Source: Amphiscolops sp. MND2022
Lineage: Eukaryota
Assembly: GCA_964187785.1 (NCBI GenBank)
Contig: OZ076409.1
Span: forward strand, 31,932,001-31,992,000
Reading direction: 5' to 3'
Length of the DNA: 60,000 nt
A program made the position numbers and the translations under genes. Positions 1-60,000 of the stretch are shown piece by piece. Within the stretch, counting starts at the first letter, position 1; every line of letters starts with the position of its first letter. The notes below the pieces were generated by a model, which had not been told where the DNA came from, ran no database searches, and was given only the letters and a program-made list of their open reading frames with translations.

Positions 1-261
1 CTACCGCGGCAGCTACCGCGACAGCTTCCACAAATACTCCAATACAAAGCTTTGCACAACTTCATGCAGGGCTCGGTGCAGGGCTTAGTGCACAAGGACT
101 TCGCGTAGCTTCGCAAGGACATCAAGGGCATCGCGTAGCTTCGCAAGGACTTAATTATGAACAACATATTAATATAAAAGATTCTTTCAAATCCATTCCT
201 AAATGCCCTGTGCGTAGCTCCGTGAAAGCTACTGCGAAAGCTACCACGAAAGCTACCGCGA

Positions 262-990
262 ATGGTATCGTGCAAGGCCCCAATCAAGACCCTGATCAAG
301 ACCCCGTTAGCTTCCGCGATAGCTTCCGCGATAGCTCCCACGCAAGACCCCGAGCATTATAGTACATTAATAGTTGGTCCATCATTTTGTGGTAAAACTC
401 ATTTGTTATTAAACAAATTACAATTAATTCAATTGAGTGATGCGGATCGTTGCGCAGAGCGTTGTGCAGAGCGTTGCAGTGAAAAACAAATACATATCTT
501 TACGAGAAGTCCTGAACAATATAAAGATGTGGGGATAAAACTGGATGTTTGGGATTCAGTAGTGGAAGAAGATTTAGGTGATAAAAGTGTTCAAGGTTTT
601 CAAAATTGTTGTGTTGTGTTTGATGACATGTTAGACTCCAATCAGAAATTAATAGATCCATTTTTTACTAGAGAAAGACACAAATCTTGTGATGTTTATT
701 ATTTAAGTCAGAGTTACTTTGAGGTACCCAAAAGAACAATCAGAAACAATTCAAATATAATAATCCTATTTCAACAAACCTTGAAAGATGTTGAACACAT
801 TTATAGAGATATTGCTGGTTTTGATATGTCTTATGATGAATTCAAAAGTTTGTGTAGAGAGGCATGGAAAGAAAAATACAACTACTTAATAATAAATAGG
901 TTAGAAGATAAAAATGGGAGTAAACACCAGGTGTGTAATGAATCTAATCCAAATTACATGATCTTCAATCCACAAACGGATCCATTTTAA
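262..990 (+). CDS. A32/FtsK-HerA-like genome packaging ATPase of Polinton type
   Basis: Walker A GPSFCGKT, Walker B CVVFDD, then R(E)RH..DVYYLSQSYF..PK..IR.NS.IIILF typical of Polinton/NCLDV packaging ATPases; the true start may be upstream (frame 3 is open from 3 to 363), implying a frameshift. Confidence 0.88.
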   Translation: MVSCKAPIKTLIKTPLASAIASAIAPTQDPEHYSTLIVGPSFCGKTHLLLNKLQLIQLSDADRCAERCAERCSEKQIHIFTRSPEQYKDVGIKLDVWDSVVEEDLGDKSVQGFQNCCVVFDDMLDSNQKLIDPFFTRERHKSCDVYYLSQSYFEVPKRTIRNNSNIIILFQQTLKDVEHIYRDIAGFDMSYDEFKSLCREAWKEKYNYLIINRLEDKNGSKHQVCNESNPNYMIFNPQTDPF

Positions 991-1036
991 ACTGAGGTGG
1001 AATCGCGCAAAGCGTGTGTGGGAGGGACTTCTGCAA

Positions 1037-2084
1037 CTACCGCGCGATAGCTACCGCAACTTCGCCTTCGGTAAAATTGCTTAGTATGTTGCTACGTATA
1101 TTTTGGTGTTGAGAAGGTGTTATGCATTCATACTCCAGGAGTTTATCTATAATTGCAATAATTTGTTCATTAATCAGAAAACTAAACTATCATTTCCTCC
1201 AACTTTTTCAAAATAAAGTAGTTTCAATTGATCCACTAATTCCTCTGGATCAGATGGGAGGAAAATGTATTGTTGTGTGGAACTTCGCGCGTAGCTTCGC
1301 GAAGTTTCACCATTCAATCCACTTTCTGTGAAACCCTGTGTATCGTGTGTCTGTAATTGATAGCGAGAGTATAATTCTTTAATAAATTGGTATCTGATTG
1401 ATTTTTTATCTCTATAATTTCGATCATATTTCATATCATTTAGGAAAGTTTAAATTGTGTCCAGGTTATTTATTTGTTTGTCAAATTGTGTATTTGTTAT
1501 AAAATATTGAAGATCTGGGTCACTAAGATCATATGAATTCCCACTCTCAAAAGTCATTGTTGAACCTTTGATTAGTACTTGTTGTGGGTTATGGGGATTA
1601 ATTGTGAATAAATTAGGATTGTCTTGTGCGAAGCTCTGCGTAATTGGTTCTAAACTAAATTGACTTTTGTTTTTGTCATTAAGTAAATTGGAAACTGTTT
1701 TTACAAAACTAGAATCAACCTGGTTGGAATTAACAAGACTTGTAAGAAGTTGGTTGTTATGATTTGTAATTTCATTATATTGTTTTATTCCTTCTTTAAG
1801 AGAATTTTGCATGGCTACGTGAAGAGTATTATTATTGTGTTCTATTGCTCTTGTCTGATTTTCAATTGCTTGTGTAACCCCTTGGGTTTGTTTGTCAATG
1901 GCTTGTAGTTGTTTTTCATTTGATTCCACCTGCTTTGTAGTAACAGGTTCAAAAACTTCTTCAAGGTCGTAGTGGAAGTCTTGCTTCCCTAATTTCTCTT
2001 TTAATCTTTCTTTGCGTAGTAAAGATTTTGTTTCTTGTAATTTTTTAATTTTTCCAAGTCATCTCGAGTGTGAATTGAATACAT
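1037..2084 (-). pseudogene. Conserved Polinton uncharacterised protein, broken by frameshifts and stops (covers track ORFs 1450..1929 and 1174..1434)
   Basis: Starts MYSIHTRDDLEKL at TAATAAATG (ATG at 2084); contains LGKQDFHYDLEEVFEPVT; C-terminal LPSDPEELVDQLKLL..GGND then, after a frameshift, LINEQIIAIIDKLLEY, resembling the Polinton DPNELV.RL.LL...AGN..NEI..I..EL motif. Confidence 0.65.
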
Positions 2085-2110
2085 TTATTAAATTTATTTA
2101 ATGAATGTAA

Positions 2111-2590
2111 CTAGTGGTTTTTCCCCAGATACAGGCCTTTACCCCCTTTACTTGCTTTGCTGCCTGTGTTGCTTGCTTTGCTGCCTGCTTTGCTGCCTTT
2201 ACTCGACAAACCTTCAGCTTTGTATAACCCCTTCCCTTGATGAACAAATTTAATAACGTCGGGGGCAGTTGCAGCAATGAGTTTTGGATTTTTACTTGCT
2301 GCTGCCGTTCCAATATTTGCTGCTATTTCCAATGCACGGCCTGGATTATTGAGTATTTTCTTTCCAACATTTTGAGCAGCTTTGCCCAAATGTTTGAAGA
2401 AGTCGACCAATCCTTCCCCATTTATTGTTCGATCTGATACAATAAGACTTTCATTTCCGCTACATATCATACAGGTGCCCCGTAACATTTTTACATTATT
2501 GTTTCTAGCATCTCCATAAATATTTGTGGTGGGGGAATAATGTTTTCCACCAAAACAAATTGAATTATTTATAAATTTATTATAACTCAT
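2111..2590 (-). CDS. Polinton basic core or membrane-lytic precursor protein with candidate adenain cleavage sites
   Basis: N-terminal Zn-ribbon-like part (MLRGTCMIC), GxG-L motifs (NGEGL, QGKGL, GGKGL), and an amphipathic cationic helix LVDFFKHLGKAAQNVGKKIL. Confidence 0.6.
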   Translation of the reverse strand: MSYNKFINNSICFGGKHYSPTTNIYGDARNNNVKMLRGTCMICSGNESLIVSDRTINGEGLVDFFKHLGKAAQNVGKKILNNPGRALEIAANIGTAAASKNPKLIAATAPDVIKFVHQGKGLYKAEGLSSKGSKAGSKASNTGSKASKGGKGLYLGKNH

Positions 2591-2608
2591 TTATTATTAT
2601 TAAAAGTA

Positions 2609-3841
2609 TTAAATCTTGATAATTTGAATTGTGAAGGTGAGTGCCTCCACGTTGAAATCAACTGAATCATGATTAGAGTCCTCAAGGAAAAATTGAATGG
2701 TATCCAGTCGTGTTTTGTTTATCAACTTGTACAAAACAGTTGTGGGTTCTTTTTTATTTTTATATCCGGGAGGTGCGCTTAAATTGAAAGAAAATAAAAT
2801 TTGTTCTCGTATACCATTAACAATTGAACCATCTACACAATCACACTTCAGGTGAACTTTGTCGGTAGTTGTTATCATAACTGGTTTTTCTGAAGTGTGA
2901 GTTCCGGGTGGGTACACTGTGTGTGTAAAGCCCAAGACTGTGTTAAGTTTGGAGTTAAATTGAATATTGTTTGAGGTTGTTAAAACTGATTTCATTGATA
3001 TTGTGTCAGGCATTATGTTGAATTTAAAATCATATTCGCTCTCATTAATTTTTTGTTTAATAGCATTATTTATATCAACTAGTTCATAAACTCCTGGTGT
3101 TAGTTGTATTCCAAAGAAATCGTTTTCAATAATTTCAAAGGTGGTTAAATTTATTTGATTTATTTGGTTTGCTTCATCTTCGTGATTTTCTTGGGTTGTT
3201 TCCTCCAAAATTATTTCCTCCCACTTTATTTCTTCCCAATTTATTTTTACCTGTTTTAGGCGATCTTTGTCTGCTTCAATTATTCTTTCTCGTTTTAGTT
3301 TTTCTTGGTTTAATTTTTCTTGGTTTATTGTTTTCAGGTTGAGGTGATTGTTGTATATTTCATTGAGTGGTTTGACTATCTTTGTTAAATAATCAAAATC
3401 TATTCTAGTAAGTTTATTCTTTTTAGAATAACTATTGGTTATAAGTTTATTGGCTTTTTCTACAAACTCATTATATTCACTAGGTGTGTAAGGTTTACTA
3501 AAATAAGTAGTGTATAAATCTTCAACAAACAATATTAATCCACTATCAAGATTAAGTTCTTTGAGTTGTCGATCGTTCAGAATAATCTGTAGTTTGTTAT
3601 TCTTTTCATTATTGTTATATACGGTGTTGTATACTTCTAGGCTTGTTACTCCCATCATCCATTTTTCATTTAAAATGAGAGGAACATCAAATGAGAAAGA
3701 TTCTTTTTGTTTTTTCATTTTAAATTCTAGAGTTTCTTGTGGTTTAGAATGAGTATTTTCAACAATTTCTTGATTAGATTTTGCAATACTTAAAAGAAGA
3801 GATTCTTTTTCATCATAAGTTACAAAGCTTGATAGATCCAT
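2609..3841 (-). CDS. Polinton minor capsid (penton-like, single jelly-roll) protein
   Basis: Intact 410-aa ORF with SLEVYN, PGVYEL.DIN, LGF, HLKCDCVDGSIVNG.REQILFSF....PPGYK, VLYK.IN and VDFN.E.LTFTIQI motifs. Confidence 0.75.
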   Translation of the reverse strand: MDLSSFVTYDEKESLLLSIAKSNQEIVENTHSKPQETLEFKMKKQKESFSFDVPLILNEKWMMGVTSLEVYNTVYNNNEKNNKLQIILNDRQLKELNLDSGLILFVEDLYTTYFSKPYTPSEYNEFVEKANKLITNSYSKKNKLTRIDFDYLTKIVKPLNEIYNNHLNLKTINQEKLNQEKLKRERIIEADKDRLKQVKINWEEIKWEEIILEETTQENHEDEANQINQINLTTFEIIENDFFGIQLTPGVYELVDINNAIKQKINESEYDFKFNIMPDTISMKSVLTTSNNIQFNSKLNTVLGFTHTVYPPGTHTSEKPVMITTTDKVHLKCDCVDGSIVNGIREQILFSFNLSAPPGYKNKKEPTTVLYKLINKTRLDTIQFFLEDSNHDSVDFNVEALTFTIQIIKI

Positions 3842-3855
3842 TTATTAGAAAAAAA

Positions 3856-4044
3856 TCATGCTTGAAATTGTTTGAATCCACTAGCGGAAATGTTATTTAT
3901 AAATTCTTGCCTATCTTTTGATAATGTTTTCTTACGCAAGTTTGTTGTATTTTTTCCATGATTTTGATTTTGATTGTGAAGCTGTTCTGTAAAAATTTGT
4001 GGGACAATTTTATATTGAGTTGAATAATTATTAATTTTCTTCTT
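3856..4044 (-). pseudogene. Small basic Polinton ORF (62 aa) with start codon apparently mutated ATG>AAG
   Basis: Open frame KKINNYSTQYKIVPQ...FINNISASGFKQFQA* preceded by TAATAAAAG, one base from the TAATAAATG motif of neighbouring genes; fills the gap between protease and penton genes. Confidence 0.55.
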
Positions 4045-4064
4045 TTATTAAGTTTGAAAGTTTG

Positions 4065-4447
4065 TTAGTATAAATTTAGTACTGCATTTTTGAACCCAAT
4101 TTTATTTGTGAGATACAATGTGTATAAACAATACGCCGCGCAATAACTGTCGTTGGTCTGAATTTGATATTCTGAATAAATACCATTTTTAATATGATTA
4201 AGTATATTAGTTGGGGGTGGGCATCCATATGAATCAAAATAATTTTGATTTGTAAGCATAACCCAATGTGTTCCTTTAGTTGGATGTAAGTTAACTATAC
4301 CACTGGTAGTGTTAAACTTATCCTCTCTCATGTATATTCCACACGGAATATTTAATTCATTAAGTATTTCTTTTATTTTACATTAGAAGTTGCTTCGTTT
4401 TTTAATCCATATTTTTCAACAAAGTCTTTGAATGAGAGATAATTCAT
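4065..4447 (-). pseudogene. Adenain-like (C5/Ulp1-fold) cysteine protease, one frameshift near 4375
   Basis: MNYLSFKDFVEKYGLKNEATSNV / frameshift / IVNLHPTKGTHWV...YFDSYGCPPP...QIQTNDSYCAAYC: catalytic His, Asp, Gln and Cys motifs. Confidence 0.85.
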
Positions 4448-4549
4448 TTATTAGTTATATTTCATTGTTGTGTATTAATGTTGTGCGAAATTTTGAAAAT
4501 TTTTTTGAAAATTTTTTTTGAATTTTTTTTTTGAAAAAAAACTTCGAAA

Positions 4550-4943
4550 ACGTCGCCGAGTGCCGAAAAATGAAAAAGGGGGACCCTTTGGGATTCATTA
4601 ACAAACTTTCTGTTGCAAAATATCAAAAAACCCGAAGGGGGGACTCTTTTGAGACATTAAAAATTTTCGAAAAAAAATTCGCAAAGTGCTGAAAAAAAAT
4701 TGAAAGGGGGGACCCATTGGAGTCTTCCGGTTTTGTAGGTTACGTAAAAAAGGTAAAAAGCGAAAGGGGGACCCTTTGCAGTAAGTTTGCATTGGTCGAA
4801 CTTGGCCTGAGTGAACTTATCAGTTTCTGTAAATAGTGGTACATACGCGATGAGCTCTGTGGTCTGACGAAAAAAAAGAAAAAAAACTAGCCACTGTAAT
4901 AGTCGGGCTTTTTTCCTTAAAAGAAAATGCGCCGACTAAAAAA
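4550..4943. repeat. Terminal module: four AAGGGGGAC(C/T)C repeats followed by an imperfect hairpin and A-run
   Basis: Repeats near 4577, 4636, 4704 and 4764; stem TAGTCGG (4900-4906) / CCGACTA (4932-4938); a related hairpin occurs in reverse orientation at 59891-59935. Confidence 0.65.
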
Positions 4944-5312
4944 CACTAATATAAACTAGATGAAATTCTAAGAAACATTTATATCTGATGTTTTTCGAAA
5001 TTCTCAACTGATTTCGAGCAAATCGAGCCTGAAATCGCTACGGGGGACGTTTTCTTAATCACAGTACTGTACACTGGGCGTTTCTGTTTTGTTTCCTTCA
5101 TTTTGAACAAATTGTGCGACCAACAATCGGGCGTTGCTTTTTCTGATTATCAGACACTGCGCAATACTATAACGGCCTTTTTTTAAAATTTAAACTAGTT
5201 TCTTCTAAATCAGTCACTGCGCGATATTACACGGGGAATCGCTATTCCATTCTAAAACTGTCACCACCCTGATTGTAGTTCACTGCAGTTCAAAAAAATC
5301 TTTCAGGCGTAC

Positions 5313-5585
5313 TGTACTGACCTACATTAATAACCAATAGTATTTAGATGTTTATAGAATGTTCTAGAATGTACATTTATTTAATATTGAATGACTGTAA
5401 AACTCTACTCCTTCAGAGAGAGAAAACTAATATTCAGTATTTAGTCGACTTCCTTTCTTCCTTCTTTCAGACCTCCAAGCTTTATTAGAGTCAGCTAGCT
5501 AGCATCAATCTAAGTAGTCTTGTCTTAATATTTAGACCTGTACCATCTAGATACAAGACCACTAACTAAAATATACAACTCTTTA
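5313..5585 (+). repeat. LTR copy in inverted orientation relative to element C, lacking the last ~10 bp
   Basis: TGTACTGACCTACATTAATAACCAATAG... is the reverse complement of the LTR ending at 17146; homology ends at ACTCTTTA; scattered substitutions and one indel block. Confidence 0.9.
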
Positions 5586-5589
5586 TATG

Positions 5590-6122
5590 ATGATAAATGA
5601 TGATAATCACTATCATCAAAAAATGAGAAGGAACTTTGTATATTATAATTGTTTAGTTCTTTACTATCGGTCGCGTTTAAATATCTTATCATATTTTTTC
5701 ATTCAACAGGGTCAAGTATTTTTGGAAGTTCTAATGTATTTTGTCCCCAGTCTAAGCGATCATATCGTCTACTAGATGTGAATGTTTGTGAACACCAAAC
5801 CTTTTTCGTTTTTATATATGCTTCACATTTGAAGGCTTTAATTCTTTTCGCTTTTGCTCTAACATATACTTTTGCTTGAGTTTTTGTGTGTTGTATAACT
5901 GAAGGTGCTAATTTACATGGTTCAACATTTAGTTAGTAGGCTAAACTGTCGTAGGTTGTTTTGTTTTGCACAATCATAATGGGTTACCATAAGGTTTAGG
6001 ATATTTGGGTCTTGTTCTGAAATACGATTTTCTGGGTTTGTCGTATCAGTTTTAGGAGTTGATGTAGAGTTATTTATGTATATCATATATGTAATATATG
6101 TATAGAAAAGTATATTTTTCAT
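5590..6122 (-). pseudogene. Truncated env-like glycoprotein (N-terminal ~175 aa)
   Basis: Hydrophobic N-terminus MKNILFYTYITYMIYI, then VTHYDCAKQNNLRQFSLL / frameshift / NVEPC...VRAKAKRIKAFKCEAYIKTKKVWCSQT; lies 3' of integrase; N-glycosylation sequons NST and NAT. Confidence 0.6.
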
Positions 6123-6139
6123 GGTTAAAATATAGATCT

Positions 6140-7590
6140 ATAATTAAGTCCTGAGTAGAGATTGAAGAAGTTTTTATGACCTTTTCTACTTTCTGGTAAT
6201 TCTGCGTCACAAAGATAAGATATTGATGTGACTAAAAATGGTCAGGGAAATGTTTTATGTGCTACTCTTGTTGAAAGAGGAAATGGATGAGGGTTTAAGG
6301 AATTGAATGTAACTTCAACTTCGAATTTTAGTATTAATTGATCTTCTCGTAATCTTTGTAGTTCTCTCTGTTTTCTTGGGTTTGAAAGGGAACTATTATT
6401 TATAAATCTGGCTGGAAGTACGGTGTATCGTGGATCTTCGTTAAGACTACGAATAATCTTAGAGTTAACACGGATAGGGTATTCGTGTTGATTTGGTGTA
6501 GGAGGTCTCGAAAAATCTTCTAGAAAATATTCGGGTAAATGTATTGATGAATCAGATCGTACTGAACTAGGTGAATAAACTCTTGAAAAGTTTGCGGCGT
6601 TATCTGATATAGTTTGAGGATCTTCTGATAAAAGAGATGCTGATTCAAATCCTGATGTGACTTGAAATGGTAACGATAGAGAAGATGGTATTTTAGGGTT
6701 AGATGAGAAAAGAGAAGAAGTTTCTGATCTGGGTTGTGCGTGTAGTCTAGATAGTCTTGAGTTTGTACTGGAACTAGTTAAAGATTGTAATTCCTGAGAA
6801 TTTTTTCGTCCCTGGGATCTGAGATTATAACTATGTCGTGGTACTCTGGTACTAGCAGTCGAATCAGAGTCTTTATCTTTGTAATATAGGTCTGTTAAAG
6901 AAGAAGTTGTGGTTGATTTGAGGCCTTCTAGTTTTGGATATAATTGAGAAATTGTGAACGTACTTAGTTCAGATGGTGACTTTGCTGTATTTTCTGGTAT
7001 AGTTTTTATTGGGGTTTGACTTGTTGATGGTAAATTAGAGTTCTTTGGTAGTGTTGGTATAGAAGTTTTTCAAGGTGTTTTTTTTGCAGTTGGTATTCTA
7101 TGTGAACAAGAGCTAATATATTGGAGAACTGAGCTAGGATCAGGGATATGAATAGTACGAGTAGTAGGAATCGGTGGAATAGGGGGTCTATTTAGGGTAC
7201 TTGAAGTATCTTGTACAGTAGTTTGGGCTGTGGGTGATTCATCGCAAGAGTCATTTGTTGGTGAATTTGTTTCTAGAAATGGTAAGTTTTGTGGAGTGTA
7301 TTGTGGTTGAGTTGTTATTACTGATGTTTGAGTTTGAAGTGTTGGTGTATTATTGGGCGTCTGAGTTTGAAGTGTGGGTGTATTATTGGGCGTCTCTGTT
7401 GCTCTATAAGGAGAATATGGAGCAGATGGGCTATGGTTTGAGGATGAGGAATCCAGTATGTCTGTATCTGAATTTAGGTATGCGGTATAATCAGGTAGTG
7501 TTTGCAATGAATGGTTTGAGCTGGAGGATGAAATATTTCCGGCTGATGAAGATGAGAGTCTATGTCTATCAATTTTGACCTGTTTCAATT
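6140..7590 (-). pseudogene. Ser/Thr/Pro-rich accessory ORF between integrase and env-like gene, frameshifted
   Basis: Track ORF 7070..7588 continues in shifted frames (HSYNLRSQ, EYPIRVNSKII, FNSLNPHPFPLS); 33-bp internal duplication encoding TPNNTPTLQTQ twice. Confidence 0.45.
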
Positions 7591-8131
7591 AAAGCTTCAA
7601 TTTTTGTTTCAATTACAATTTCGTATCCTGTCTCTTTTTCTTCATTCAAGTTACTATCTATTAGTATCTATCCCAAGCTTTCTTTCAGCAGGATTTTTGA
7701 GAAAATGAAATTATTTCTTTTTCACCGAGGAAAAGTCGATAATCCTTCCATAGTTGTGGGCGGAAATTATATCTGTCATGTGTGTGTCTACGAGGGTTAA
7801 TAAAGTTATCGTAATCATGAATATCAGAGTGGTTCTCTGGGTTAGTATTATTAGTTTTTTGTTTATTTTGTTGGTACGGAAATGAGGAGTATTGGTTAAA
7901 TGGTTCTGTTTGGAAGTCAATTGTGGATGGTTTATCAGTTTCTTTATTGGAATTTGTGGATGTGTGATTGTCGTCTTCAACTGATTGTTCTTCATCAGAC
8001 TCAATAGACTTTATTGGGTTATTTATATTAGAGTCGTGATTATCATTATCATCATTGTTTATTTGTGAAGTATATTGTTGTATAAAAGGAAAAATGATTG
8101 GTTCCTTTGGATAATAAGGGACTAAATATTT

Positions 8132-11100
8132 TCAATGAATATGAGAAGTGTAACCATCTTGGTTAACAATCTCATATGTAATATCGGAAAGTTTATTAAT
8201 GATTTTAAATGGTCCAATTCTGAGTGGTTTCAATTTATCTGAAAAATGAACATGGAGAAAATTTCTTTTTAGTACAAAGGTGCCAATGTCTAAGGGTCTT
8301 GGATTGTTATATGTTTTATTAAAATAGGCAAATGAATTAATTTTTCTTTTTGTGTTTTCATATACCGTGTGGTAGATTCGTATCATAGCAGTTTCAGTAG
8401 CCGAAATCCATTGTGGAATTGGTTTCGATAAGATTTTATGGAAGAAAGGGTTTAAATTTGATTTGTCATAATGTATATGAAGTGGTAAATCTTGACAGTA
8501 TTGAGAGGTACAATTTCTATAAGTATCTCTTTGAAGGTTGAGTTCAAAGTTGATTGGTGTTCGTTGTATAATATGAAAAACTAATTCGTATGGTGAAAGA
8601 TTTAATTCAGAAAGTGGTTGTGAATTTGATGCGTAAGCGTACAAATGGACTTGTGTAGACTGGTTTTCTGGTGTGTTATGTAAAAAAAGTCTGAGGTGGG
8701 TTCCAGGGTTTTTGTTTTGCTTTCCTATTAGGCCATTTGTCCAATGTGCGTAAGGACTTCTTGGTGAATGTCTGATTCCCATTGTGGTACAAAGGTTTGC
8801 AAGTTCAGAATTAATGTTTTCTGAACCACGATCTGTAACGAAATATATGGGAGGTCCAAATTGGGTAATCCAGTGATGTAATAAGGAATTACCAGCCTTT
8901 TGAGCATTGTTTTTAACAGATACTGTTACTACGAAATGACTAAAAGCATCTACTATCACATGAATGTATGAGTTCTAATTTGATGGTGGATTTATAGGTC
9001 CTTTTGTATCCATTGATATTCGGTAATTAAAATACGAAGCATTTTCTGAAAATGTTTGTAACGTTGCGGTTTGAAATTTTTGATTATTGTGTTTGTTTTG
9101 TTGACATTCAATACAATCGTGAATGAATACTGACATCCATTTATTCAAATATGGTATGAAATAAAATTGAATAAAAGCTTTTATGGATATTTTATATCCT
9201 GAATGTCCATGTGCATGAAATTTATTGAAAGCTGCATGAAAGAGTTTAAATGGTAAACATATTTTGTCTTTTGGAACTGGGTTTGAAATATGGATGTTAG
9301 GATAATCTATGTGAATGTCTTCTGTATCATGATTGATATACAGTTGGTTGAAGAGTTTATAATAAACTGATAAGAAGAAATTACTTGCTATTGTTGGGTC
9401 TATTTGTAAAGGTCTTTCATTTGTTTTCAGCCAATGAAAAACTTTTTGTAAGACATGGTCTTGTTTTTGTTGAGATTTTATAGTTTCAATTGTTATTTGA
9501 GGATCTTCTGGTAGGAAGAAATAATGAAAGTATCTTTTGTATTCGAAGAAAGATGGATCAAAAAAAGAAACTTGTTGATTAAAGTAATCAGATTTAGTGG
9601 GATACTGAATTGCTAAGGATTGTTCTTTCAACGTATTAGTGTTTTGGTTTTTCGAATCTTGTGATTGGTTTGGTTCATCTTCGTCACTAAAAATATCAGT
9701 GTCATTGAGAATTGTTGATTGCTGCAAAAATGATGCTGCTTGATTTTTTGTAGGTCTTTTGTATTTAGATTCAAACGGAACAATGGATTGAAAGGAAAAT
9801 GAATCTAAGGGTTTTATGTGAATGTCTTCTCCTTCGTTGTTTATACGAATGGAAAATTGATCTTCACCATAATCAACGAGGATTAGATGGCAATCATTTT
9901 TTTGATTATATTTAGTTTTTTCGTGTTTTACTAAATATTGTACTGGTCGGAGTTGATTATCTTTCCTGATAGCGAAATCGATTTGGGGTGGTAGTTGTTT
10001 GTGTCGTAGTTGAGGTATTTGAAGTTGTTCTTTTGTGAAAGTTCTTGAAAGCATGTCTGCTACAATTAGGTTCTTTCTAGGAGTATGAAGAATTTTGAGT
10101 TTAGGAAATTGTGTTAGTTGCATTTGTGCTCTATAAAATCTTGGACTAAGATTTCCTTTTTTTGCAAAACAATGTAGTAGAGGTTTGTGATCTGTAAAGA
10201 TGTATATTGGATGAGGAGATCCAATAATGAGAAATTCATGTATTTGTAATGCATAAACTATTGCGAGAAGTTCTCGATCTAATAATGAAAGTTTTTGTTC
10301 TTGTGTATTAAGGATTCGTGAATTATTTGAAAAAACTTTCATTTTATTTTCTTCATTCATTTGGAATAGGACCGCGCCTAAACCAACTAAGGGAGCATCA
10401 ACTGTTATGAAAAATGTGTGTGTTGTATTGAGTATTGTTAATTCAGTTTCTGCTGTCATTGCATTTTTAACATCTTGGAATATCTTTTCTAATTCAGGTG
10501 TCCATTGAAATTTAACATCATCATGTAGTAAAGTATATAGTGGTTTGAGATTTGTATGTAACTTTTCAACAAACTTTGAATAAAAGTTTACGCTGCCTAA
10601 AAATTGCATAACATCTTTCTTTTCTTTTGGTGAACGATTTTTTTAATGGCTTCAATTTCAGATGGAATTGGTTTAATTGTGTTGTTTCCTATTTCATGTC
10701 CAAAGAATTTTACTTCAAGTAACATGTAAATTGATTTTTCAGGTGCAAGTTTGAGATTTTATTTTGTAGCTAGTTTATGAAGTTCTTTGATGAGTTCAAA
10801 CATTTTTTGTTTTTCGTCTGCCAACAGTAGTATGTCGTCGATATACACTAACGCAGAACGTTTGTCTATGAGTGAGCAAAAGACGGTTGACATTTGTTTT
10901 GTGAAAAAGTTTGGAAGTCCTTTTATTCCATAGAATCATCGGATAAAGATATACAATTTATCTCCGGATGAAAATCCTGTGAGTTTGATTTTTTCTTCGT
11001 CTAATGGGGTATGAGCATATGCATACATTAAATCAAAAGTTGATTTGTATTTTTTGTTAGCTCTAGCTAATTGAGGTGCTAAAGGTTCAATGGGCCAAGA

Positions 11101-12100
11101 TTCGAATTCTTGATTAGTGTTTGAGTTTGAATGTCTAGCATCTAGAACAACTTTTATTGCATCTCCTTCGGGGATAATGATTAAAGGGTTTAAAAATGTT
11201 GTTCCAATAGTGTGTTTTTCATCAGGCGTGGAGCCAATTTGTTTTATTATATAATATTTTTCGAGTTCTGTTAAGAGTTTATTCAATCTATCTCTGTAAT
11301 GAATTGGTACTTTAGAAGGTCGTTGTTATTGAAGTTTACAATTTTCTTTATTTCTAAATCTGATTGGAGTAGAAACGTTTCCTACGTCGTTTCGGTGTTT
11401 GGCGTAACAATGTTGAATAATAATAAGGATATTGCAAAGGTTTACATATTCAGTATCAGTCAAATTTGAATATTCAAAGTTAAACTTTTCTATGAATTGC
11501 TGATTTTCTGCAGTCTATGGTAGTAAAGGAAAATCTTTTCTAATTTTATCTGAGGGTCTAAGGTTTCCTGTGACTGAAGGTATGAGTAACTGAAGTGTTT
11601 TGTCGTTTATTTCTTGTTTGTTGATTTCTAATAAAGATTGTGGAAATGTTGAAAAATGTGTTTTTGTAGGAAGGTTTGGATGTTGTTCTTTATATGTCAT
11701 AATAGTTTGTTGAAAATCTATGTTTTGAAAATATCTCTTGAAGAAAGGTGCTCCAAGAATATTATATTTAATGTTTGCTAAAGCAAATTCAATATTGAAA
11801 GATTGGTTTTGATGAATTACTTCCAAAACATGTCATTGAGATATAGTGCAATATTGGTACTTCAGTTTGATTGGCAACTGTAAGTGTTTTTGCTCTTCTA
11901 ATTTCAATATCTTTAGGAACACTGAGGTTTAATTATTTTGCAATTACTTGAAATGTTGATAGGTTCAAAACTGATATAGAAGCTCCAGTATCTAAAAAGA
12001 ATAGAATCTCTAGTTTTGAAGGTAACATGTTGCCTTTTTTTCGGAAGCATGTATATATAGTGGATAAAACCAACTATAAGGAGTAATTGTATTGGCAATT
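8132..12100 (-). pseudogene. pol: Gypsy pol (protease, RT, RNase H, integrase), multiple frameshifts
   Basis: FLDTGASISVL protease (~11990); VVLDAR, DLMYAYAH and LVYIDDILL RT (~10840); TVDA..GLGAVL, RELLA, TDHKPL and ADMLSR RNase H; HAHGH..CIEC zinc finger, SMDTKGP, TDRGSE integrase, GPF motif. Confidence 0.92.
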
Positions 12101-12369
12101 TCAGTTAGTTTGCATTTATGAATTTCAAATTTAGTACTATCTTTGTCATTGGTAGGTTTAACATCTACTTGATTTATTCTATTTTGTTGTCTGTTTTGTG
12201 AAGGTGTCCTAGATCGTGATCTGTAATCTCTTGGTTTGGATGGAGATCTATACGGGTAATTATGTCGTCTAAAGGAGTTTCCTTGTGATTGAGAACGAGA
12301 TCTATATCTTGATAGAGAATTGTATCTATAATTGGAGTTGTTTCTATATGGTGGTCTATAGGGAGATCT

Positions 12370-14270
12370 TTATGGAGTTCTTCTTTGATAGTGATTGTGA
12401 TAGCGAGATCTAGATTGATACGGGCTTTGAGATCTATCATAGTATCTTTGTCGAGAATTCGATCGATAAATATTTTGTGAGTAATCTCTACTGTTGCTTC
12501 GGTATCTGTCGTTATTCCTATATCTATTATTGTAATAGGAATTGTTTTGATTATGTCTGTCAGAAGAATCATTTTTATTTTCATTTCGATTTTCTTGTGC
12601 ATTATTGGGTTTACTTCGAAAGTATTGCACAAAGGATTGTTGAGGAGTTCTTGATCTGTGATTTTTTTATCTCTGGTATTCTTCATAACGTTGTTTTTGA
12701 TAACAATTTGAAACACTATGGTTGTTTTTATGGTTGTTTTATGGTTGTTGTGGAATGGTATTGATGGTTCAAGTAATGTTGGTACATGTTTAGCTTGTCT
12801 TTTGTGAGCAAAATCTTTTAACTTTTTAGGTCATACTTTTGTGAAAATTTCATTGTTTTTGAGGTTTATGGTAGCTGCATTTTCATTGCACCATCCCTTT
12901 TTAGCTAATTGTGTTACTCTAAGAGCAAAATAACGTACCGTTTCATTATCTTTTTTCATGAGTGCTATAGCTTCTACTTGTGCATTATAAGCTGTTTGTT
13001 GAGATGAGAATTGTTTTTTAAACAGTTATACAATTGAATTCCGCTGTTGTTTATATGATATATGGAGGTTTGTGTACCAATCAAGAGCTGTTGCAATTAA
13101 AGAACGTTGTATATGTGCCATGCGTCTATTAGGCCACGACCTATGTTTAACAGGATTATTTTGAGGTTCTTCACCTATAGCAAAGGTTAATCTTGCTTCA
13201 ACCTGTTGTAAATAATCATCTGGGGTGCAGGAATGGTCTAAACCGTCGAAAGGTTTCATTGGTTCTGGTATTGAAGCTGAAGTATTTATGAATGTATCTT
13301 GTTGTACTGGCATATATTGAAGTGGGGGAGCTACAGATTGTACCATGTTTACGGATGGTAAGTTTGTAGTTGGGTTATAAGTTGTATGTTGATTCATTTG
13401 ATTTAGAGGATCAGTAGATATTTGTGAAAGTGGAAGATTTTGAGATCTTCTCTGAGAATATTGTACAACGTTTGAATACGTTTTTTGATTTTGTGGAGGA
13501 AAATTATTTTTTGAAACATTTGTCTGTAGTAAATGTGCATATGGATGGTGTGTCGTTGAATTATTATTATTGTTAGATTGAGGAACATTTGGAATATTGT
13601 TCATTTGAATAGTTGTATTTGCTTGTGGAAAAAAGGAGTAATTAAATGGATCATAGTATTGACTAGAAGTTTGCTGATTACTAATACTATTATTTTCTGG
13701 CTGGATTCTTGTATTTGACTGTTGGAAAGCGGAAGGAATTGATGGAGGATCATATCTGGATCGAGTTATCTTTCGTGTATTACCAAGAATAGTTCTCGTG
13801 GGTGATAAAACATTAACAGAAGTATCACGCGTATAGGTTACATTTTGAGTTTAATTTTGTACTGTGTCATATAGCTGTGGACCATGCGTATTTTGTCTTG
13901 GATTAACAAATCTAGTTGGAACTCTAACGAATTGTGTGTTTGGTGTTTCAGTTTGTGATGTGTTTTGTGCTGAAGATGTAGAATCTGGAGTTGTATACTC
14001 ACTTGCATTATGGTCGTTCATATTGTGTACAATGTCTTCATTGCGATTTTCATTTGGTTTTTCAACTATACAATCTTCGTTATTATTATCATTTTCATTG
14101 TAGTAGTTATTATTAATGAATAGATTTTGTTGCTCTTGAAATTCTGTCCATAACAATAAGGTCTATTATCATCAAGAAGGTTGTTTTCTGTAGTTAAGCG
14201 AGGTTCAAAAGATATGAGATCTAAGTTTTGTTTTTCTATTTTATCTGGTTGGGAAAAGTAAGGATGTTCA
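12370..14270 (-). pseudogene. gag: Gypsy gag, frameshifted and internally deleted
   Basis: PMKPFDGLDHSCTPDDYLQQVEARLTF capsid-like motif, ALDWY, ETVRYFALRV, remnant HKNNHSVSNC knuckle, Arg/Ser/Asn-rich C-terminus. Confidence 0.75.
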
Positions 14271-14276
14271 TGTTCT

Positions 14277-15437
14277 TTATTTATTATTAATAGTCATAAT
14301 CATCAGTATACATAAATAGTATTCATCAGCTGTAAAATGAGTACGAAATGCTGTGAAAGGTATTGTTTGTCCGTTCAATGTTATGTCTTTGAAATAGTGG
14401 TATGAGAAATTTTGTATTCGTATTTTATCTGCTTGTAACCAATGATGAGGATTATTTTGAGTTGTAACTAGTCTTTCTATATCTTCTACTTCGAAATTGT
14501 GTACATATTGTTCAAGTTCTTCAAGTGCATTTGGGCTATATTTTGGGTTTTCAAGTGTTAAATTGTATTCTTTTACTTTATTTAGGAAACCATAGAAAAT
14601 TTCTTGAATAAGAATTTGGAGATTAGTTGGAATTTTTGTTCTTCTATATGTTTGAGTTGAGGAAGTTTCTTGTAAAGGAAAAGTTCTTTGAAAAGATGGA
14701 TATTCTGTAGAAGCAGTTGTAGATCTATGTCTAATATAAAAGAGGTATGTATCCAGATGTTCTGTAATAAAAGGAATTGTTTCAAGAGTATAGGGTTCAT
14801 TTTCAAATGGAAGTGGTTTTGTATAATTGTGAACAATGTTGTGTAAAAATGGTTTTATTTCGTCTTTTATTTCGTCTTGCATTTTTAATATGAGGTATTT
14901 CAAAAGGTGAAGGAGAGGAAATTGGGGAGTTCACATTATAGACTAGTTATTGTTGTAAGTATCTTTTCCAATAGGATGCAAAATAAGAATAAACTGGCAA
15001 ATGTATACGTGGTGATAAGTATGATTGTGGTAACCGTTTCCCACATAGTATGTTGTTGTTGGGTTCAAGAAAGTCTATTACAATAATACTAAGTGTAACA
15101 AAGATTTTATCAATTTTATATATATGTATATGAGTGGTCAGAAGTATTATTTTTATAATAAAATTCTTCGGAATACGTGAATTCTTGATGTGTTTTTATA
15201 TGCATTACGTTATGTTCTTGTTGTGAAATTTTAAGTTGGTGATCTTGGATAGTATCGGTGTTGATCTAAAAGACAGAAAAAATATCTTCCGTATTGTTGG
15301 TTTAGTCGTTCAAAATCTGCAGATGTAGGGTTGTAAATAGTATTGGAAAACTCTGGAACTAGATGTGTAGGGGTAGATTTTGAAGGAGTAGAGAAGGATG
15401 AATTGTCAGAAATTTGGTTATGTGTGTTTAAGTTCAT
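14277..15437 (-). pseudogene. Extra ORF upstream of gag, unknown function
   Basis: Track ORFs 15231..15437 and 14277..14903 lie between the leader and gag on the element strand; no recognised motif. Confidence 0.5.
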
Positions 15438-16396
15438 ATATTGTGTAATATGACATGAATATGAAATTGTCTGAAGTGTTTATATTATCAGGGATAGAGA
15501 AGAAAGAAGCGGATGCAATAGAATCTGTATCCAACATCAAAAGATTTTCAACAGAATCTGAATTATGATTTAAGTCTGGATTAAGTTAAAGTGTCTGACA
15601 TAAGGCCACTGACACATCCAGTAAGAGTTGTATTTTAGAGCTGGACTTCAATTAGGGTGTCTAACATAAGGTTACTGACACGTCCAGAAAGGTTAAGAGA
15701 ATTTTAATTTTAAGTGGGTTGTGTGTTTTAAGACTAAGGGAGCGGAACTCTGAACAATCAACGTCCACTATCCAAAGTCGGATCAATACAGATCACGATC
15801 AACATTTGATCTTCTGTGTCTTTTACTTTTACTTTTACATCCTGCGAATTCCGAAGATTCGAATGTAGTTCGGTGCCTCTAGATTCTCCTTAATGGCGTT
15901 TAAGGAGTTTAAGCCTAACTAAGGTGTTTAGTCAGCCTTAGAACCAGAATACGCAAACGAAAAGCTAGGTATGGTCTGATTGTCTAAGTCTTATGGGAGG
16001 GAATTGGAATTGTGGGTGCCTAAAAGTAGAAACTACCTTTACTGTGTCTGTTTTATTTACATGCCCTATTTCAGATTTTAGGGCAAAAGAGGTGTATTGA
16101 AAGTGTATGTTTTCGTTAAAATAATTGTTTTGTGCAATTAAGTTTAAACTATGAGCAGGTTAAAATGTTGTTAATAAGAGGATGGTATCAAAGAGATGGT
16201 AAAAGACTTGGTTACTTTTTATGGATTTCAGAATCTATTTCTGAAAGTAAGATTTATTGTTGATTTTTTCTGCCAACACGAAGTTGATATTGAAACGTAT
16301 GTGCTTATAGGTTAAATGGGTCTGACGTGCACTCAGTCAACTATTACACCAGGAGTCCACCTGACGTTCAAGATAGCAGGATTGAAGAAATTATTG

Positions 16397-16661
16397 CCGT
16401 GTCAAGGGTGTTAGAAAACCTTGATAAACCGGACAAAACTGTTTCAACAAGCTTCCGGATAGGTGTGATAAATCAGTATGGAGAACAGAACTGTGTCACT
16501 GTGGATAAATCAGTCCAAAAAAGAGCAGAACTGTGTCACAATGGATAAATCAGTCTGAAAATATACCGTGTCAACGTGTTAGAAAACGTGATAAACCGGC
16601 AGGGCAAGAAGAATAGAAGAAAAACCGTGTCAACGTTTATAGAAAAACGTGATAAACCGGC
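16397..16661. repeat. Short direct repeats in the 5' leader of element C
   Basis: CCGTGTCAA..GTGTTAGAAAA..TGATAAACCGG three times (~16397, 16566, 16625) and CAGAACTGTGTCAC..TGGATAAATCAGTC twice. Confidence 0.75.
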
Positions 16662-16878
16662 TTTGAAGAATTTTTTGTTCTATTTCAAATAGAGACAATT
16701 TTTGTCTAACAATGATGTCTTTGTTGAAGAAATTCAAAAAGTCACAGACTATATTTTCTAGGAAATCTAGAAAAATGTCAATGCAATCGAAAAGAATTTC
16801 GAAGAGAAGAAGTGGTAGGTGTTGTATTGTTGAGAGAAAAGAAAGCATTCAACAAAGAAAGAAGAAATTTCACCAAAT

Positions 16879-17146
16879 TGTGCTGCTTTAAAGAGTCTAA
16901 TATTTTTATTTGGTGGTCTTTCATCTAGATGGTATAGGTCTAAGTCTTAGGACGATGCTAGCTAGCTGACTCTAATAAAGCTTGGAGGTCTGAAAGAAAG
17001 AAAAAGGAAGTCGACTAAACACTAATTATTAGTTTTCTCTCTTAGAGGGAGTTGAGTTTTACAGTCATTCAATATCAAATAAATGTTCATTCTAGAACAT
17101 TCTATAAACATCTAAATACTATTGGTTATTAATGTAGGTCAGTACA
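16879..17146 (-). repeat. 5' LTR of element C (268 bp)
   Basis: Minus strand TGTACTG...AATAAA...CAGCACA (TG..CA, 6/7 terminal inverted match), followed by ATT-TGGTG at the PBS position. Confidence 0.88.
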
Positions 17147-20100
17147 TAAGCAAGCATTTCATTGCATTTACACGCGTTTTTCAGCAAAAACGACGTTAAA
17201 TGCCTAAAACCCGTTAACTCGCGCTAAAAACGTGTTTTAAGCTCATTGTTGGTTTTAACGCAATGAAGGCACTCGGAAAAGTGCAAACGCAGTGAACTAT
17301 GCAAAACTAGGTTACCTGACATTAAAAGACGCATTCCTTTTTCAGCAAAAAGGACAATAAATGCGCTAAAACGCCTAAATTTGCGATAGGAACGCGTTTT
17401 AAGCACACTATTTGTTTTAACGCAATGAAAGTACTGGGAAACGTTCAGTAGCGTTGAATTATGTAAAAAGAAGTTCGCTAACGTTAAAAGAAGCATTTCT
17501 TAGCTTTTAATTGCTTTTGTTCAGCAAAAACGAAAATAAATGCGCTAAAACGCGTGAATTCGCTTTTAAAACGCATTTAATGCACACTACTTATTTTAAG
17601 GCAATGAAAGCACTGGGGGAACGTGCAGAAACGTTGAACTATGCCAAATGAAGTTAAATAACGTTAAAGCAAGCATTTCTTTGCGTTTAAACGCGTTTTT
17701 CACCAAAAGTGACGTTAATTGCGCTAAGACCCGTTAGTTCGCGTTTTAAGCACATTGTTGGTTTTAACGCAATGAAAGCACTCACTGAGAAAGGTGCAAA
17801 CGCGTTGAACTATGCAAAATTAGGGTCACCAATGTAAAAACAACCCTTTCTTTGCATCTAGACGCGTTTCTCAGCAAAAACGACGTTAAATGCGCTAAAA
17901 TGCGTTGATTCGCGCTAAAAACGCGTTTTAATCACATCATCGACTTTAACGCAATGAATGCACTGGGAAACGTGCAAACGCAATGAATTATGCAAAATTA
18001 GGTTCACTAACGTTAAAACAAGCATTTTCCCGCGTTTAAACGCATTTTTCAGCAAAATTGACATGAATTGCTCTAAAGCACCTAAATTCGCAATAGAAAC
18101 GCGTTTTAAGCACAAAATTTGATTTAACGCAATGAAAGCACTGGGAAACGTTGAGTTATTTTGCGCTAAAAAAGCGTTTTTCGCACACTATCGTTTTTAA
18201 CGCAATGAAAGTACTGGGAAACGTTCAGTAGCGTTGAATTATGTAAAAAGAAGTTCGCTAACGTTAAAAGAAGCGTTTCTTAGCTTTTAATTGCTTTTGT
18301 TCAGCAAAAACGAAAATAAATGCGCTAAAACGCGTGAATTCGCTATAAAAACGCATTTAATGCACACTACTTATTTTAAGGCAATGAAAGCACTGGGAAA
18401 CGTGCAGAAACGTTAAACTATGCCAAATGAAGTTAAATAACGTTAAAGCAAGCACTTCTTTGCGTTTAAACGCGTTTTTCACCAAAAGTGACGTTAATTG
18501 CGCTAAAACCCGTTAGTTCGCGTTTTAAGCACATTGTTGGTTTTAACGCAATGAAAGCACTCACTGAGAAAGGTGCAAACGCGTTGAACTATGCAAAATT
18601 AAGGTCACCAATGTAAAAACAAGCCTTTCTTTGCATCTAGACGCGTTTCTCAGCAAAAACGACGTTAAATGCGCTAAAATGCGTTGATTCGCGCTAAAAA
18701 CGCGTTTTAATCACATCATCGACTTTAACGCAATGAATGCACCGGGAAACGTGCAAACGCAATGAATTATGCAAAATTAGGTTCACTAACGTTAAAACAA
18801 GCATTTTCCTGCGTTTAAACGCATTTTTCAGCAAAAATGACAATAATTGCTCTAAAACACCTAAATTTGCAATAGAAACGCGTTTTAAGCACACCATTTG
18901 ATTTAACGCAATGAAAGCACTGGGAAACGTTGAGTTATTTTGCGCTAAAAAAGCGTTTTTTGCACACTATCGTTTTTAACGCAATGAAAGCACTGAGAAT
19001 GGTGCAAATGCATTGAATTATGCAGTACTAGGCTAACTAACGCTAAAATAAGCATTTCTCTGCGTTTAAACGCGTTTTTCAGCAAAAAAGACGTTAGATG
19101 CGCTAAAACGCGTTATTTCGGGCTAAAAACGCGTTTTTTTGCACACTATCGGTTTTAACGCATTGAAAGCACTGGCAATGATGCAAATGCATTGAATTAT
19201 GCAAAACGAGGCTAACTAACGCTAAAAGAAGCATTTCCCTGCGTTTAAACCGTTTTTCAGCGAAAACGACGTTAGATGCTCTAAAACGCGTTATTTCGCG
19301 CTAAAAACGCGTTTTATGCACACTATCGGTTTCAACGGAATGGAAGCACTGGAAAAGGTGGAAATGCATTGAATTATGCAGAATTCGGCTAACTAACGCT
19401 AAAACAAGCGTTTCCCTGCGTTTAAACCGTTTTTCAGCGAAAACGACGTTAGATGCGCTAAAACGCGTTATTTCGCGCTAAAAACGCGTTTTATGCACAC
19501 TATCGGTTTTAACACAATGGAAGCACTGGAAATGGTGCAAATGCATTGAAATATGCAGAACTAGGCTAACTGTCGCTAAAACAAGCATTTCCCTGCGTTT
19601 AAACCGTTTTTCAGCGAAAACGACGTTAGATGCTCTAAAACGCGTTATTTCGCGCTAAAAACGCGTTTTATGCACACTATCGGTTTAACCGCAATGGAAG
19701 CTCTGGAAATGGTGCAAATGCATTGAATTATGCAGAACGAGGCTAACTAACGCTAAAACAAGCGTTTCCCTGCGTTTAAACGCGTTTTTCAGCAAAAACG
19801 ACGTTAGATGCGCTAAAACGCGTTATTTCGCGCTAAAACGCGTTTCATGCACACTATCGGTTTCAACGCAATGAAAGCACTGGGAATGGTGCAAATGCCT
19901 TGAATTATGCAAAACTAGGCTAACTAACGCTAAAACAAGAATTTCCCTGCTTTTAAACGCGTTTTTCAGCAAAAACGACGTTAGATGAGCTAAAACGCGT
20001 TATTTTGCGCTAAAAACGCGTTTTATGCACACTATCGGTTTCAACGTAATGGAAGCACTGGAAAAATTGGAAATGCATTGAATTATGCAGAATTAGGCTA

Positions 20101-23100
20101 ACTAACGCTAAAACAAGCGTTTCCCTGCGTTTAAACCGTTTTTCAGCGAAAACGAGGTTAGATGCGCTAAAACGCGTTATTTCGCGCTAAAAACGCGTTT
20201 CATGCACACTATCGGTTTTAACACAATGGAAGCACTGGAAATGGTGCAAATGCATTAAATTATGCAGAACTAGGCTAATTGACGCTAAAACAAGAAATTC
20301 TCTGCGTTTAAACCGTTTTTCAGCGAAAACGACGTTAGATGCGCTAAAACGTGTTATTTCGCGCTAAAAACGCGTTTAATGCACACTATCGGTTTTAACG
20401 CAATAGAAGCACTGGAAATGGTGCAAATGCATTGAATTATGCAGAACTAGGCTAACCAACGCTAAAACAAGCGTTTCCCTGCGTTTAAACGCGTTTTTCA
20501 GCAAAAACGATGTTAGATGCGCTAAAACGCGTTATTTCGCGCTAAAACGCGTTTCATGCACACTATCGGTTTCAACGCAATGAAAGCACTGGGATTGGTG
20601 CAAATGCATTGAATTATGCAGAACTAGGCTAACTAACGCTATAACAAGCATTTCCTTGCGTTTAAACGCGTTTTTCAGCATAAACGACATTAGATGCGCT
20701 AAAACGCGTTATTTTGCGCTAAAAATGTGGTTTGTGCACACTATCGGTTTTGACGCAATGGAAGCACTGGAAATGGTGCAAATGCATTGAATTATGCAGA
20801 ACTAGGCAATTTAACGCTAAAACAAGCGTTTTCCTGCGTTTAAACGCGTTTTTCAGCAAAAACGACGTTAGATGCGCTAAAACGCCTTATTTCGCGCTAA
20901 AAACGCGTTTAATGCACACTATCGATTTTTACGCAATGGAAGCACTGGAAATGGTGCAAATGCATTGAATTATGCAGAACTAGGCTAACTAACGCTAAAA
21001 CAAGCGTTTCCCTGCGTCTAAACGCGTTTTTCAGCAAAAACGATGTTAGATGCGCTAAAACGCGTTATTTTGCGCTAAAAACGCGTTTTATGCACACTAT
21101 CGGTTTTAACGCAATGAAAGCACTGGAAATGGTGCAAACGCCTTGAAGTATGCAAAACTAGGCTAACTAACGCTAAAACAAGCATTTACCTGCGCTTAAA
21201 TGCGTTTTTCAGCAAAAACGACGTTAGATGCGCTAAAACGCGTTATTTCGCGCTAAAAACGAATTTTATACACACTACCGGTTCTAACGCAATGAAAGCA
21301 CTGGGAATGATGCAAATGCATTGAATCATGCTAGGCCACCTAACGCTAAAACAAGCGTTTCCCTGCGTATAAACGCGTTTTTCAGCAAAAACGACGTTAG
21401 ATGCGCTAAAACGCGTTATTTCGCGCTAAAAACGCGTTTTATGCTTACTATCGGTTTCAACGCAATGAAAGCACTGGGAATGGTGCAAACGCATTGAATT
21501 ATGCAGAACTAGGCTAACTAACGCTAAACAACTGTTTCCCTGCGTTTAAACGCGTTTTTCAGCAAAAACGACGTTAGTTGCGCTAAAACGCGTTATTTCG
21601 CGCTAAAAACGATTTTTATTCACACTACCGGTTCTAACGCAATGAAAGCACTGGGAATGATGCAAATGCATTGAATCATGCAAAACTAGGCCACCTAACG
21701 CTAAAACAAGCGTTTCCCTGCGTATAAACGCGTTTTTTTTAGCAAAAACGACGTTAGATGCGCTAAAACGCGTTATTTCGCGCTAAAAACGCGTTTAATG
21801 CTTACTATCGGTTTCAACGCAATGAAAGCACTGGGAATGGTGCAAACGCATTGATTCATGCAAAACTAGGCTAACTCACGCTAGAACAAGCATTTCTTTG
21901 CGTTTAAACGCGTTTTTCAGCAAAAACGACGTTAGTTGCGCTAAAACGCGTTATTTCGCGCTAAAAACGCGTTTTATGAACACTATCGGTTTTAACGCAA
22001 TGAAAACACTGGGAATGGTGCAAACGCATTGAAATATGCAGAACTAGGCTAACTAACGCTAAAATAAGCGCTTCCTTGCGTTTAAACGCGTTTTTCAGCA
22101 AAAACAACGTTAGATGCGCTAAAACGAGTTATTTCGCGCTAAAAACGAGTTTTATACACACTACCGGTTCTAACGCAATGAAAGCACTGAGAATGATGCA
22201 AATGCATTGAAGTACGCAACACTAGGCTAACTAATGCTAAAACAAGCGTTTCCTTGCGTTTAAGCGCGTTTTTCAGCAAAAACGACGTTAGATGCGCTAA
22301 AACGCGTTATTACGCGCTAAAAACGCGTTTTTTTGCACACTATCGGTTTTAACGCAATGAAAGCACTGGGAATAGTGCAAACGCATTGAATTATGCAAAA
22401 CTAGGCTAACTAACGCTAAAACAAGCATTCACCTGCGCTTAAATGCGTTTTTCAGCAAAAACGACGTTAGATGCGCTAAAACGCGTTATTTCGCGCTAAA
22501 AACGAATTTTATACACACTACCGGTTCTAACGCAATGAAAGCACTGAGAATGATGCAAATGCATTGAATTATGCAAAACTAGGCCAACTAACGCTAACAC
22601 AAGCGACGTTTCCCTGCGTATAAACGCGTTTTTCAGCAAAAACGACGTTAGATGCGCTAAAACGCGTAATTTCGCGCTAAAAAGGCGTTTTATGCACACT
22701 ATCGGTTTCAACGCAATGAAAGCACTGGGAATGATGCAAACGCATTGATTCATGCAAAACTAAGCTAACTAACGCTAGAACAAGCATTTCCTTGCGTTTA
22801 AACGCGTTTTTTAGCAAAAACGACGTTAGATGCGCTAAAACTTGTTTATTTGCTCTAAAAACGCGTTTTATGCACACTATCGGTTTTAACGCAATGGAAG
22901 CACTGGAAATGGTGCAAATGCATTGAATTATGCAGAACTAGGCTAACTAACGCTAAACAAGCGTTTCCCTGCGTGTAAACGCGTTTCCCAGCAAAAACGA
23001 CGTTAGTTGCGCTAAAACGCGTTATTTCGCGCTGAAAACACGTTTTATGCACACTATCGGTTTTAACGCAATGAAAACACTGGGAATGGTGCAAACGCAT

Positions 23101-59890: not shown

Positions 59891-60000
59891 CTTTTTAGAC
59901 GGCGCTTTTCTTAAGAAAAGAGTCGACTATAGTCATGGCTTTTCGTCAGTGTTTTTTTAAAGACCAAAATAGACCTGAACTGACCAAAATAGTTCTACCA
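59891..60000. mobile_element. End of a hairpin-terminated element inserted into the BEL integrase
   Basis: TTTTT-AGACGGCG-CTTTTCTTAAGAAAAG-AGTCGACTA; related to the reverse complement of 4897-4943. Confidence 0.6.

Follow-up and report, generated by a model that had tools for sequence, protein, structure and literature searches.

A 3'-truncated Helentron-type element abutting a broken Polinton copy in Amphiscolops sp., an arrangement of nested and deleted transposons

Non-autonomous Helentrons of the HINE / DINE-1 kind are described by Thomas, Vadnagara and Pritham (2014, PMC4067079), in the parts of that paper used here, with a subterminal repeat of 12-15 bp. Set against that description, the repeat family at our locus is alike in many respects: it is non-coding, has a 5' subterminal repeat with a nearby inverted repeat and a 3' repeat followed by a short stem-loop, carries T-runs at both ends and short internal repeats, makes no target duplication, occurs in very high copy number, and has a candidate coding partner with Rep, helicase and endonuclease. 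It differs in that its repeat is perfect over 9-10 bp and lies nearer the 3' end, its 5' hairpin is longer (about 40 nt) and, in 9 of 29 copies, tandemly stacked, and the window copy is 3'-truncated. HELIANO (Li et al. 2024, PMC11417382) searches terminal repeats of 11-18 nt, according to the portions of the text drawn on here. With the HLE2 (Helentron/Helitron2) elements of the same portions our family shares short terminal inverted repeats, a 3' stem-loop, T-T insertion, alternative 5' ends in direct repeat and, in the coding partner, DUF6570 and an endonuclease, whereas its repeat falls below HELIANO's 11-18 nt. The virus-like genes beside the element were compared with Polintons (Mavericks) as the cited sections of Barreat and Katzourakis (2021, PMC8097293) present them. 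Alike are the rve integrase, the double-jelly-roll capsid, the adenain-like protease, the ATPase and the presumed B-type polymerase motifs, as well as long inverted repeats with (AGT)2//(ACT)2 ends, 6-bp duplications and a length of about 15-16 kb; unlike are the presence of two ATPase-like ORFs and the state of the window copy, which is decayed, with its right end lost and its left repeat not found.

The window, by which we mean the whole 60-kb stretch of DNA that was analysed, is C1:31932001-31992000 of the 1.07-Gb genome G000, and its features are collected in Table 1. We are confident that 4488-4943 represents the 5' three-quarters of a Helentron-type repeat that is non-coding and high in copy number, that a rolling-circle Rep-helicase encoded elsewhere likely mobilises it, and that a single deletion likely brought it up against the Polinton.

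Table 1. Positions of the elements, genes and junction in the window
Feature	Position	Strand	Remarks
Polinton/Maverick, right part	1-4489		about 8.6 kb more upstream of the window (L031:1380-10000); broken at 4489
ATPase-like ORF	226-990	+	Walker A-like GPSFCGKT in translation; no Pfam match under E 0.1
410-aa ORF	2609-3841	minus	putative minor capsid (penton), by position and by its label in the preliminary description; no Pfam match
Adenain-like cysteine protease ORF	4065-4382	minus	5' end shorter than in homologs (broken)
Polinton-HINE junction	4488-4489		two A bases common to both elements; unique in genome
HINE (non-autonomous Helentron-type, about 620 bp), 5' ~455 bp	4488-4943	minus	last ~170 bp with 3' subterminal repeat and stem-loop missing
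Four internal HINE repeats, GGGGGAC(C/T)C	4578-4774 (starts 4578, 4638, 4707, 4766)	+	within the stretch common to other copies
5' terminal hairpin	4900-4943	minus	T-run, subterminal repeat AGTCGGCGC (4937-4929), nearby inverted repeat
TA-flanked MITE, one end	4944-5071	minus	28-bp terminal repeat 5042-5069, TA 5070-5071
Sister HINE, 5' part	59893-60000	+	complete element about 370 bp, ends at about L033:258, within BEL/Pao integrase gene

The segment 4488-4943 is the 5' part of a non-coding repeat with Helentron/HINE anatomy. The repeats, the TAGTCGG/CCGACTA hairpin and the A-run that the preliminary description had reported beyond the protease gene are all present: the arms start at 4900 and 4932, the A-run occupies 4938-4943, and GGGGGAC(C/T)C has no further occurrence on either strand of the window. 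The inverted repeat pairs with the 5' subterminal repeat in the hairpin 4900-4938, whose DNA fold has an energy of -10.3 kcal/mol (z -3.1; equalled by 4 of 200 shuffles). An Rfam scan of 4400-5400 returned seven weak matches, all far under gathering scores, with no hammerhead or other RNA. The hairpin module had been described as the end of the virus-like gene block. It is an element separate from those genes, and its hairpin end faces away from them.

A genome search with 4840-4990 gave 1,851 candidates, of which 40 were scored and 30 loci, including the window, were fetched; both this sample and the Polinton sample described below consist of the best-scoring 29 of about 1,700-1,900 candidates and are not random draws. 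Among the best 29 other copies of 1,851, the match spanned most of 4488-4942 in 28 and entered the virus-like genes in none. Read on the minus strand, every sampled copy opened with a T-run and hairpin. The 3' end in 28 of these 29 copies was GCGCCGACT, an inverted copy of the 5' AGTCGGCGC, followed by a 5-bp stem-loop and T's; this stem-loop, AGACG-TTCC-CGTCT, was found in the same proportion (28/29) and is missing from the window copy. The subterminal repeat, likewise detected in 28/29, is perfect over just 9 bp (10 bp in the coding element) and is gone from the 3' side of the window copy. The 28 copies with this 3' end (among the best 29 of 1,851) were 482-638 bp long, and the portion that the window copy lacks had a median of 168 bp over 26 copies measured. 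Complete copies had T flanks in 28/28 cases, and the target duplication never exceeded 2 bp. The preliminary description was right that the hairpin beside the T-run is a Helentron/Helitron2-type end; the family has a T-run, a 5' hairpin, a short subterminal repeat and a 3' stem-loop, and makes no target duplication.

The family is very abundant. Exact matches of the HINE 5' 13-mer numbered 36,483 genome-wide (control, 21), and those of the 3' 28-mer numbered 5,208. With an expectation of 2.05 exact 5' 13-mer matches for every 60 kb, the presence of two such ends in the window is at chance level. The extra 5' hairpins in tandem noted above for nine of the 29 copies take the form of a module of about 55 bp arranged head-to-tail, often with mixed subfamilies (L003, L005, L008, L013, L017, L022, L023, L025 and L026). 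Stacked hairpin modules were also seen at L155 and L157, and 3' ends are stacked as well. The stacking suggests that HINE/Helentron elements insert into one another's T-runs.

The second hairpin of the window belongs to a sister family. A related hairpin at a T5 run had been placed at 59891, interrupting a BEL integrase; the relationship (82% identity over 44 columns) and the interruption hold, but the module starts at the T5 run 59893-59897, and the position is therefore 59893. It lies on the strand opposite to the window HINE, and the hairpin that it forms is weaker (z -1.5; equalled by 20 of 200 shuffles). The sister family had 4,852 candidates, and the 14 other copies fetched were 369-374 bp long, sharing the 5' repeat and carrying a 3' repeat and stem-loop that are related; the 620-bp and ~370-bp families have their ends and two internal patches in common. 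The host element was identified as BEL/Pao by PF05380 at 58542-58949. All 14 other BEL copies, which were 85-87% identical, were uninterrupted at the insertion site. The insertion is imperfectly clean, with a few bases on each side unexplained by the other BEL copies and no duplication.

Coding elements with HINE-like ends are present in the genome. A genome profile search with PF14214 gave 152 matches, and 20 kb was read around 10 long-frame loci outside the top-scoring group. HINE-type ends were found at two of the 10 Rep-helicase loci read (C1:34.7 Mb and C10:45.1 Mb); bracketing HINE-type ends were lacking at the other eight. The two elements, each about 11.4 kb, align at 98.4% identity along 11,465 columns that start with the same hairpin and extend as far as the stacked 3' ends. 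In both, the first 14 bases are those of HINE and the 3' module is related (87% over 46 bp). The coding element has a 2304-aa frame with matches to DUF6570 (5e-13), PF14214 (Helitron_like_N, 2.6e-17) and PIF1 (7e-26), together with an Exo_endo_phos endonuclease match (1.6e-4) that at 22 bits stays under the 24.5 cut-off. Rep motif 2, YSYRVEMQLRGMAHIH, reads RGMAH; relative to the published Helentron signature, the R before the motif is present, and the diagnostic S between G and P is absent. Neither of the two elements carries virion genes, and comparison of the C1:34.7 Mb element with the Polinton by blastn and tblastx yielded no match.

Identity between the window HINE and the coding element was 89% across the first 73 bp and 69% across another 206 bp, values low enough that the true parent of the window HINE may be another subfamily. 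A partnership between HINE and Rep-helicase is likely at the family level, and we infer that this particular Rep-helicase family may mobilise HINE. The Helentron partner at L155 also has a 376-aa frame without a Pfam match (L155:3692-4822), and the start of its Rep-helicase frame (L155:5322-5730) has a weak JAB/MPN protease-like match (E 2e-4, under cut-off). At least 16 of the Rep-helicase matches listed lie within 3 Mb at C1:73.4-76.5 Mb, all on the plus strand, with frames mostly of 1,900-2,390 aa; three other loci with frames of about 1,900-2,390 aa had no HINE-type ends.

The hairpin end of the window HINE is seated in the T-run of a MITE. The MITE family (1,936 candidates, 19 copies examined) has a length of 450-680 bp and 28-bp terminal repeats, with TA on both sides in 19/19 copies; with repeats that start CAGT, it resembles MITEs of the Tc1/mariner type. 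The 19 HINE-free copies examined had a plain T-run at the HINE position, except for one in which the run was deleted. At L006 a related HINE occupies the same T-run and the MITE resumes beyond it, so that the MITE is present on both sides. The remainder of the MITE was not found in the window.

The virus-like block belongs to a canonical Polinton family. Upstream of the window, the same copy holds polymerase-like pieces, a double-jelly-roll capsid match, an rve integrase and a second ATPase-like frame, several of them broken. The integrase (PF00665, L031:7438-7905, E 1.4e-10) and capsid (PF21738, L031:5934-6401) matches were above their cut-offs; the packaging ATPase (Pox_A32, E 3.4e-4) was under cut-off and is a weak call. 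FFGKT and YMDTDS, presumably family B polymerase motifs, occur in broken ORF pieces at L031:1986-4802, where the Pfam match was to Endonuclease_7 only. For the protease gene named in the preliminary description, Pfam and PDB sequence searches with the ORF gave no match, but when the modelled structure of a 95%-identical homolog was compared by fold, adenovirus proteases took the top three places (probability 0.99-1.00, E 0.007-0.015), none of them at E<=0.001, so that adenain-like is a weak call.

A search with 3700-4487 gave 1,690 Polinton candidates, and 30 loci including the window were fetched. The right terminus ACTACT was found 285-729 bp past the anchor in 27 of the 29 other copies (best 29 of 1,690), and the other two had no clear right terminus. 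Of ten copies traced 15 kb leftward, eight had both inverted repeats, at least 570 bp long and 92-98% identical, and two had no left repeat within 15 kb. Perfect 6-bp duplications flanked six of the ten (L037, L040, L042, L043, L045 and L046), and imperfect ones were seen at L041 (one mismatch) and L035 (one-base offset). The right-arm motif also recurs in one orientation at 5-8-kb spacing at C12:9.67-9.69 Mb and C11:49.50-49.51 Mb, which suggests tandem partial Polinton copies.

These counts bear on an earlier proposal that the block represents a Polinton-like family with non-canonical hairpin ends that integrates through an HUH or tyrosine recombinase. The window copy, with its right arm and right terminal repeat missing, shows neither terminal repeat, and the traced copies without a left repeat and the two without a clear right terminus would fit such a family. 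However, the other copies have normal inverted repeats, ACTACT termini and 6-bp duplications at the frequencies just given, and the window copy itself contains an rve integrase. Moreover, the hairpin 13-mer occurred zero times in 100 kb of Polinton bodies, where 3.4 would be expected, and neither an HUH nor a tyrosine recombinase was found among 14 Polinton ORF pieces scanned. We regard the probability of hairpin-ended Polintons as close to nil.

The left side of the window Polinton was also inspected. Another high-copy repeat abuts its left arm at L031:~1380. This repeat (L031:780-1380, L032, L172) had 2,017 candidates, several of them 100% identical over 581 bp, and a sharp end. The join lies at the same base in three loci, namely the window locus, C9:3.56-3.57 Mb (L104, L171) and C9:3.88 Mb (L179). 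The window locus and C9:3.56 Mb share 96-98% identity across more than 10 kb of upstream DNA, and the Polinton bodies are just ~83% alike. A motif search of the 30 kb upstream of the window (L031, L032, L172) found no left inverted repeat of the window Polinton. An occurrence of AGTCGGCGC at L031:~1190 was ruled out as a HINE end, being part of an unrelated high-copy repeat.

The preliminary description had offered, as its other reading, a rolling-circle element that either sits next to virion genes or has captured them. In the stronger version, rolling-circle read-through would have let a Helentron-type element take up virion genes of the Polinton, and the whole would have moved as one unit. 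In canonical Helitrons, capture can follow loss of the 3' hairpin. The orientation at our locus fits such an event: with an intact 5' hairpin on the distal side and no 3' stop signal, replication starting at 4943 would enter the protease gene. Against capture, the junction is present once in the genome (the junction-spanning 18-mer has one site, compared with 48 for the uninterrupted 16-mer), and no HINE 3' end bracketing the window Polinton was found on its left side. Polinton DNA lay within about 1.5 kb of 0/29 other hairpin-element loci and 0/14 sister-family loci, that is, 0/43 other HINE loci. Conversely, none of the 29 other Polinton copies (best 29 of 1,690) continued into the hairpin element; one had a 61-bp HINE patch 1.3 kb off, past its terminus. 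HINE clusters do adjoin some Polinton copies outside the duplication (L043/L113), as the HINE density predicts. Linkage between the hairpin and virion genes is therefore rare. The preliminary description had named rare linkage, or normal inverted repeats and 6-bp duplications in other copies, as results that would refute it, and both were observed. Capture would also leave unexplained why the 5' end is seated in half a MITE whose other half is gone. We consider capture exceedingly improbable, so that of the two versions only the adjacency survives. Among the publications listed, judged by titles and the opening parts of abstracts, none described a Helitron that had captured capsid genes from a Polinton.

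At a single point all three elements, Polinton, HINE and MITE, are truncated, and their ends were likely lost together in one deletion. The HINE would first have inserted into the MITE near the Polinton. One deletion of at least about 1.1 kb, taking about 170 bp of HINE, about 330-550 bp of MITE and about 570-730 bp of Polinton, would then have joined the ends at the 2-base overlap. We infer this order, insertion followed by a single deletion, as the simplest account. The pre-deletion state was not found: the C9 copy with the common left flank has retained its right end, and the 20 kb that follow it match nothing near 4943-5312.

An assembly error that fused two repeats would also produce a unique junction of high-copy repeats in a repeat-dense region, and the junction is known here from the assembly alone. 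However, both sides show divergence even from their best matches (identity of at most 95% for HINE and 96% for Polinton), truncated elements are common among the fetched loci, and an overlap of just 2 bases is too small for an overlap assembly error. Misassembly is very unlikely.

Under the single-deletion account, the present arrangement could still have consequences. An intact Helentron 5' origin whose stop signal is gone faces the protease, capsid-region and ATPase genes of the Polinton, and Rep-helicases with ends matching HINE are present in the genome. On this sequence arrangement, the locus might be a capture-ready chimera, from which read-through could move virion genes as cargo, later or in other individuals. 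We hold this idea to be highly doubtful; no second copy of the chimera exists in the assembly.

Other repeats of the window are recorded here for completeness. A Ty3/Gypsy-type pol region on the minus strand (RT RNase H, H2C2 zinc domain, rve) lies between inverted repeats of about 260 bp at 5313-5571 and 16889-17146, whose identity is 86% overall and 94% within the outer 144 bp; 5313-17146 may be a retroelement that lies inside a TIR element. A satellite array with a period of 177-178 bp and 37-46 copies occupies about 17150-25000. A direct duplication, 27835-32503 / 32504-36450, has a spacing of 4,669 bp, 100% identity reported over 300 bp, and a repeated ORF set.

If true, virion genes carried by a rolling-circle element, or hairpin ends on a Polinton, would have meant a new route of virus-transposon fusion. 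Neither is supported: the genome-wide counts, together with the best 29 copies of each family, exclude both for this assembly. Taken together, the locus is ordinary nested, deleted transposon debris, a chance arrangement of known kinds of element (HINE, Helentron partner, Polinton and MITE). It is useful for repeat annotation, since it provides a HINE family of very high abundance, for which there is a candidate coding partner, plus a canonical Polinton family.
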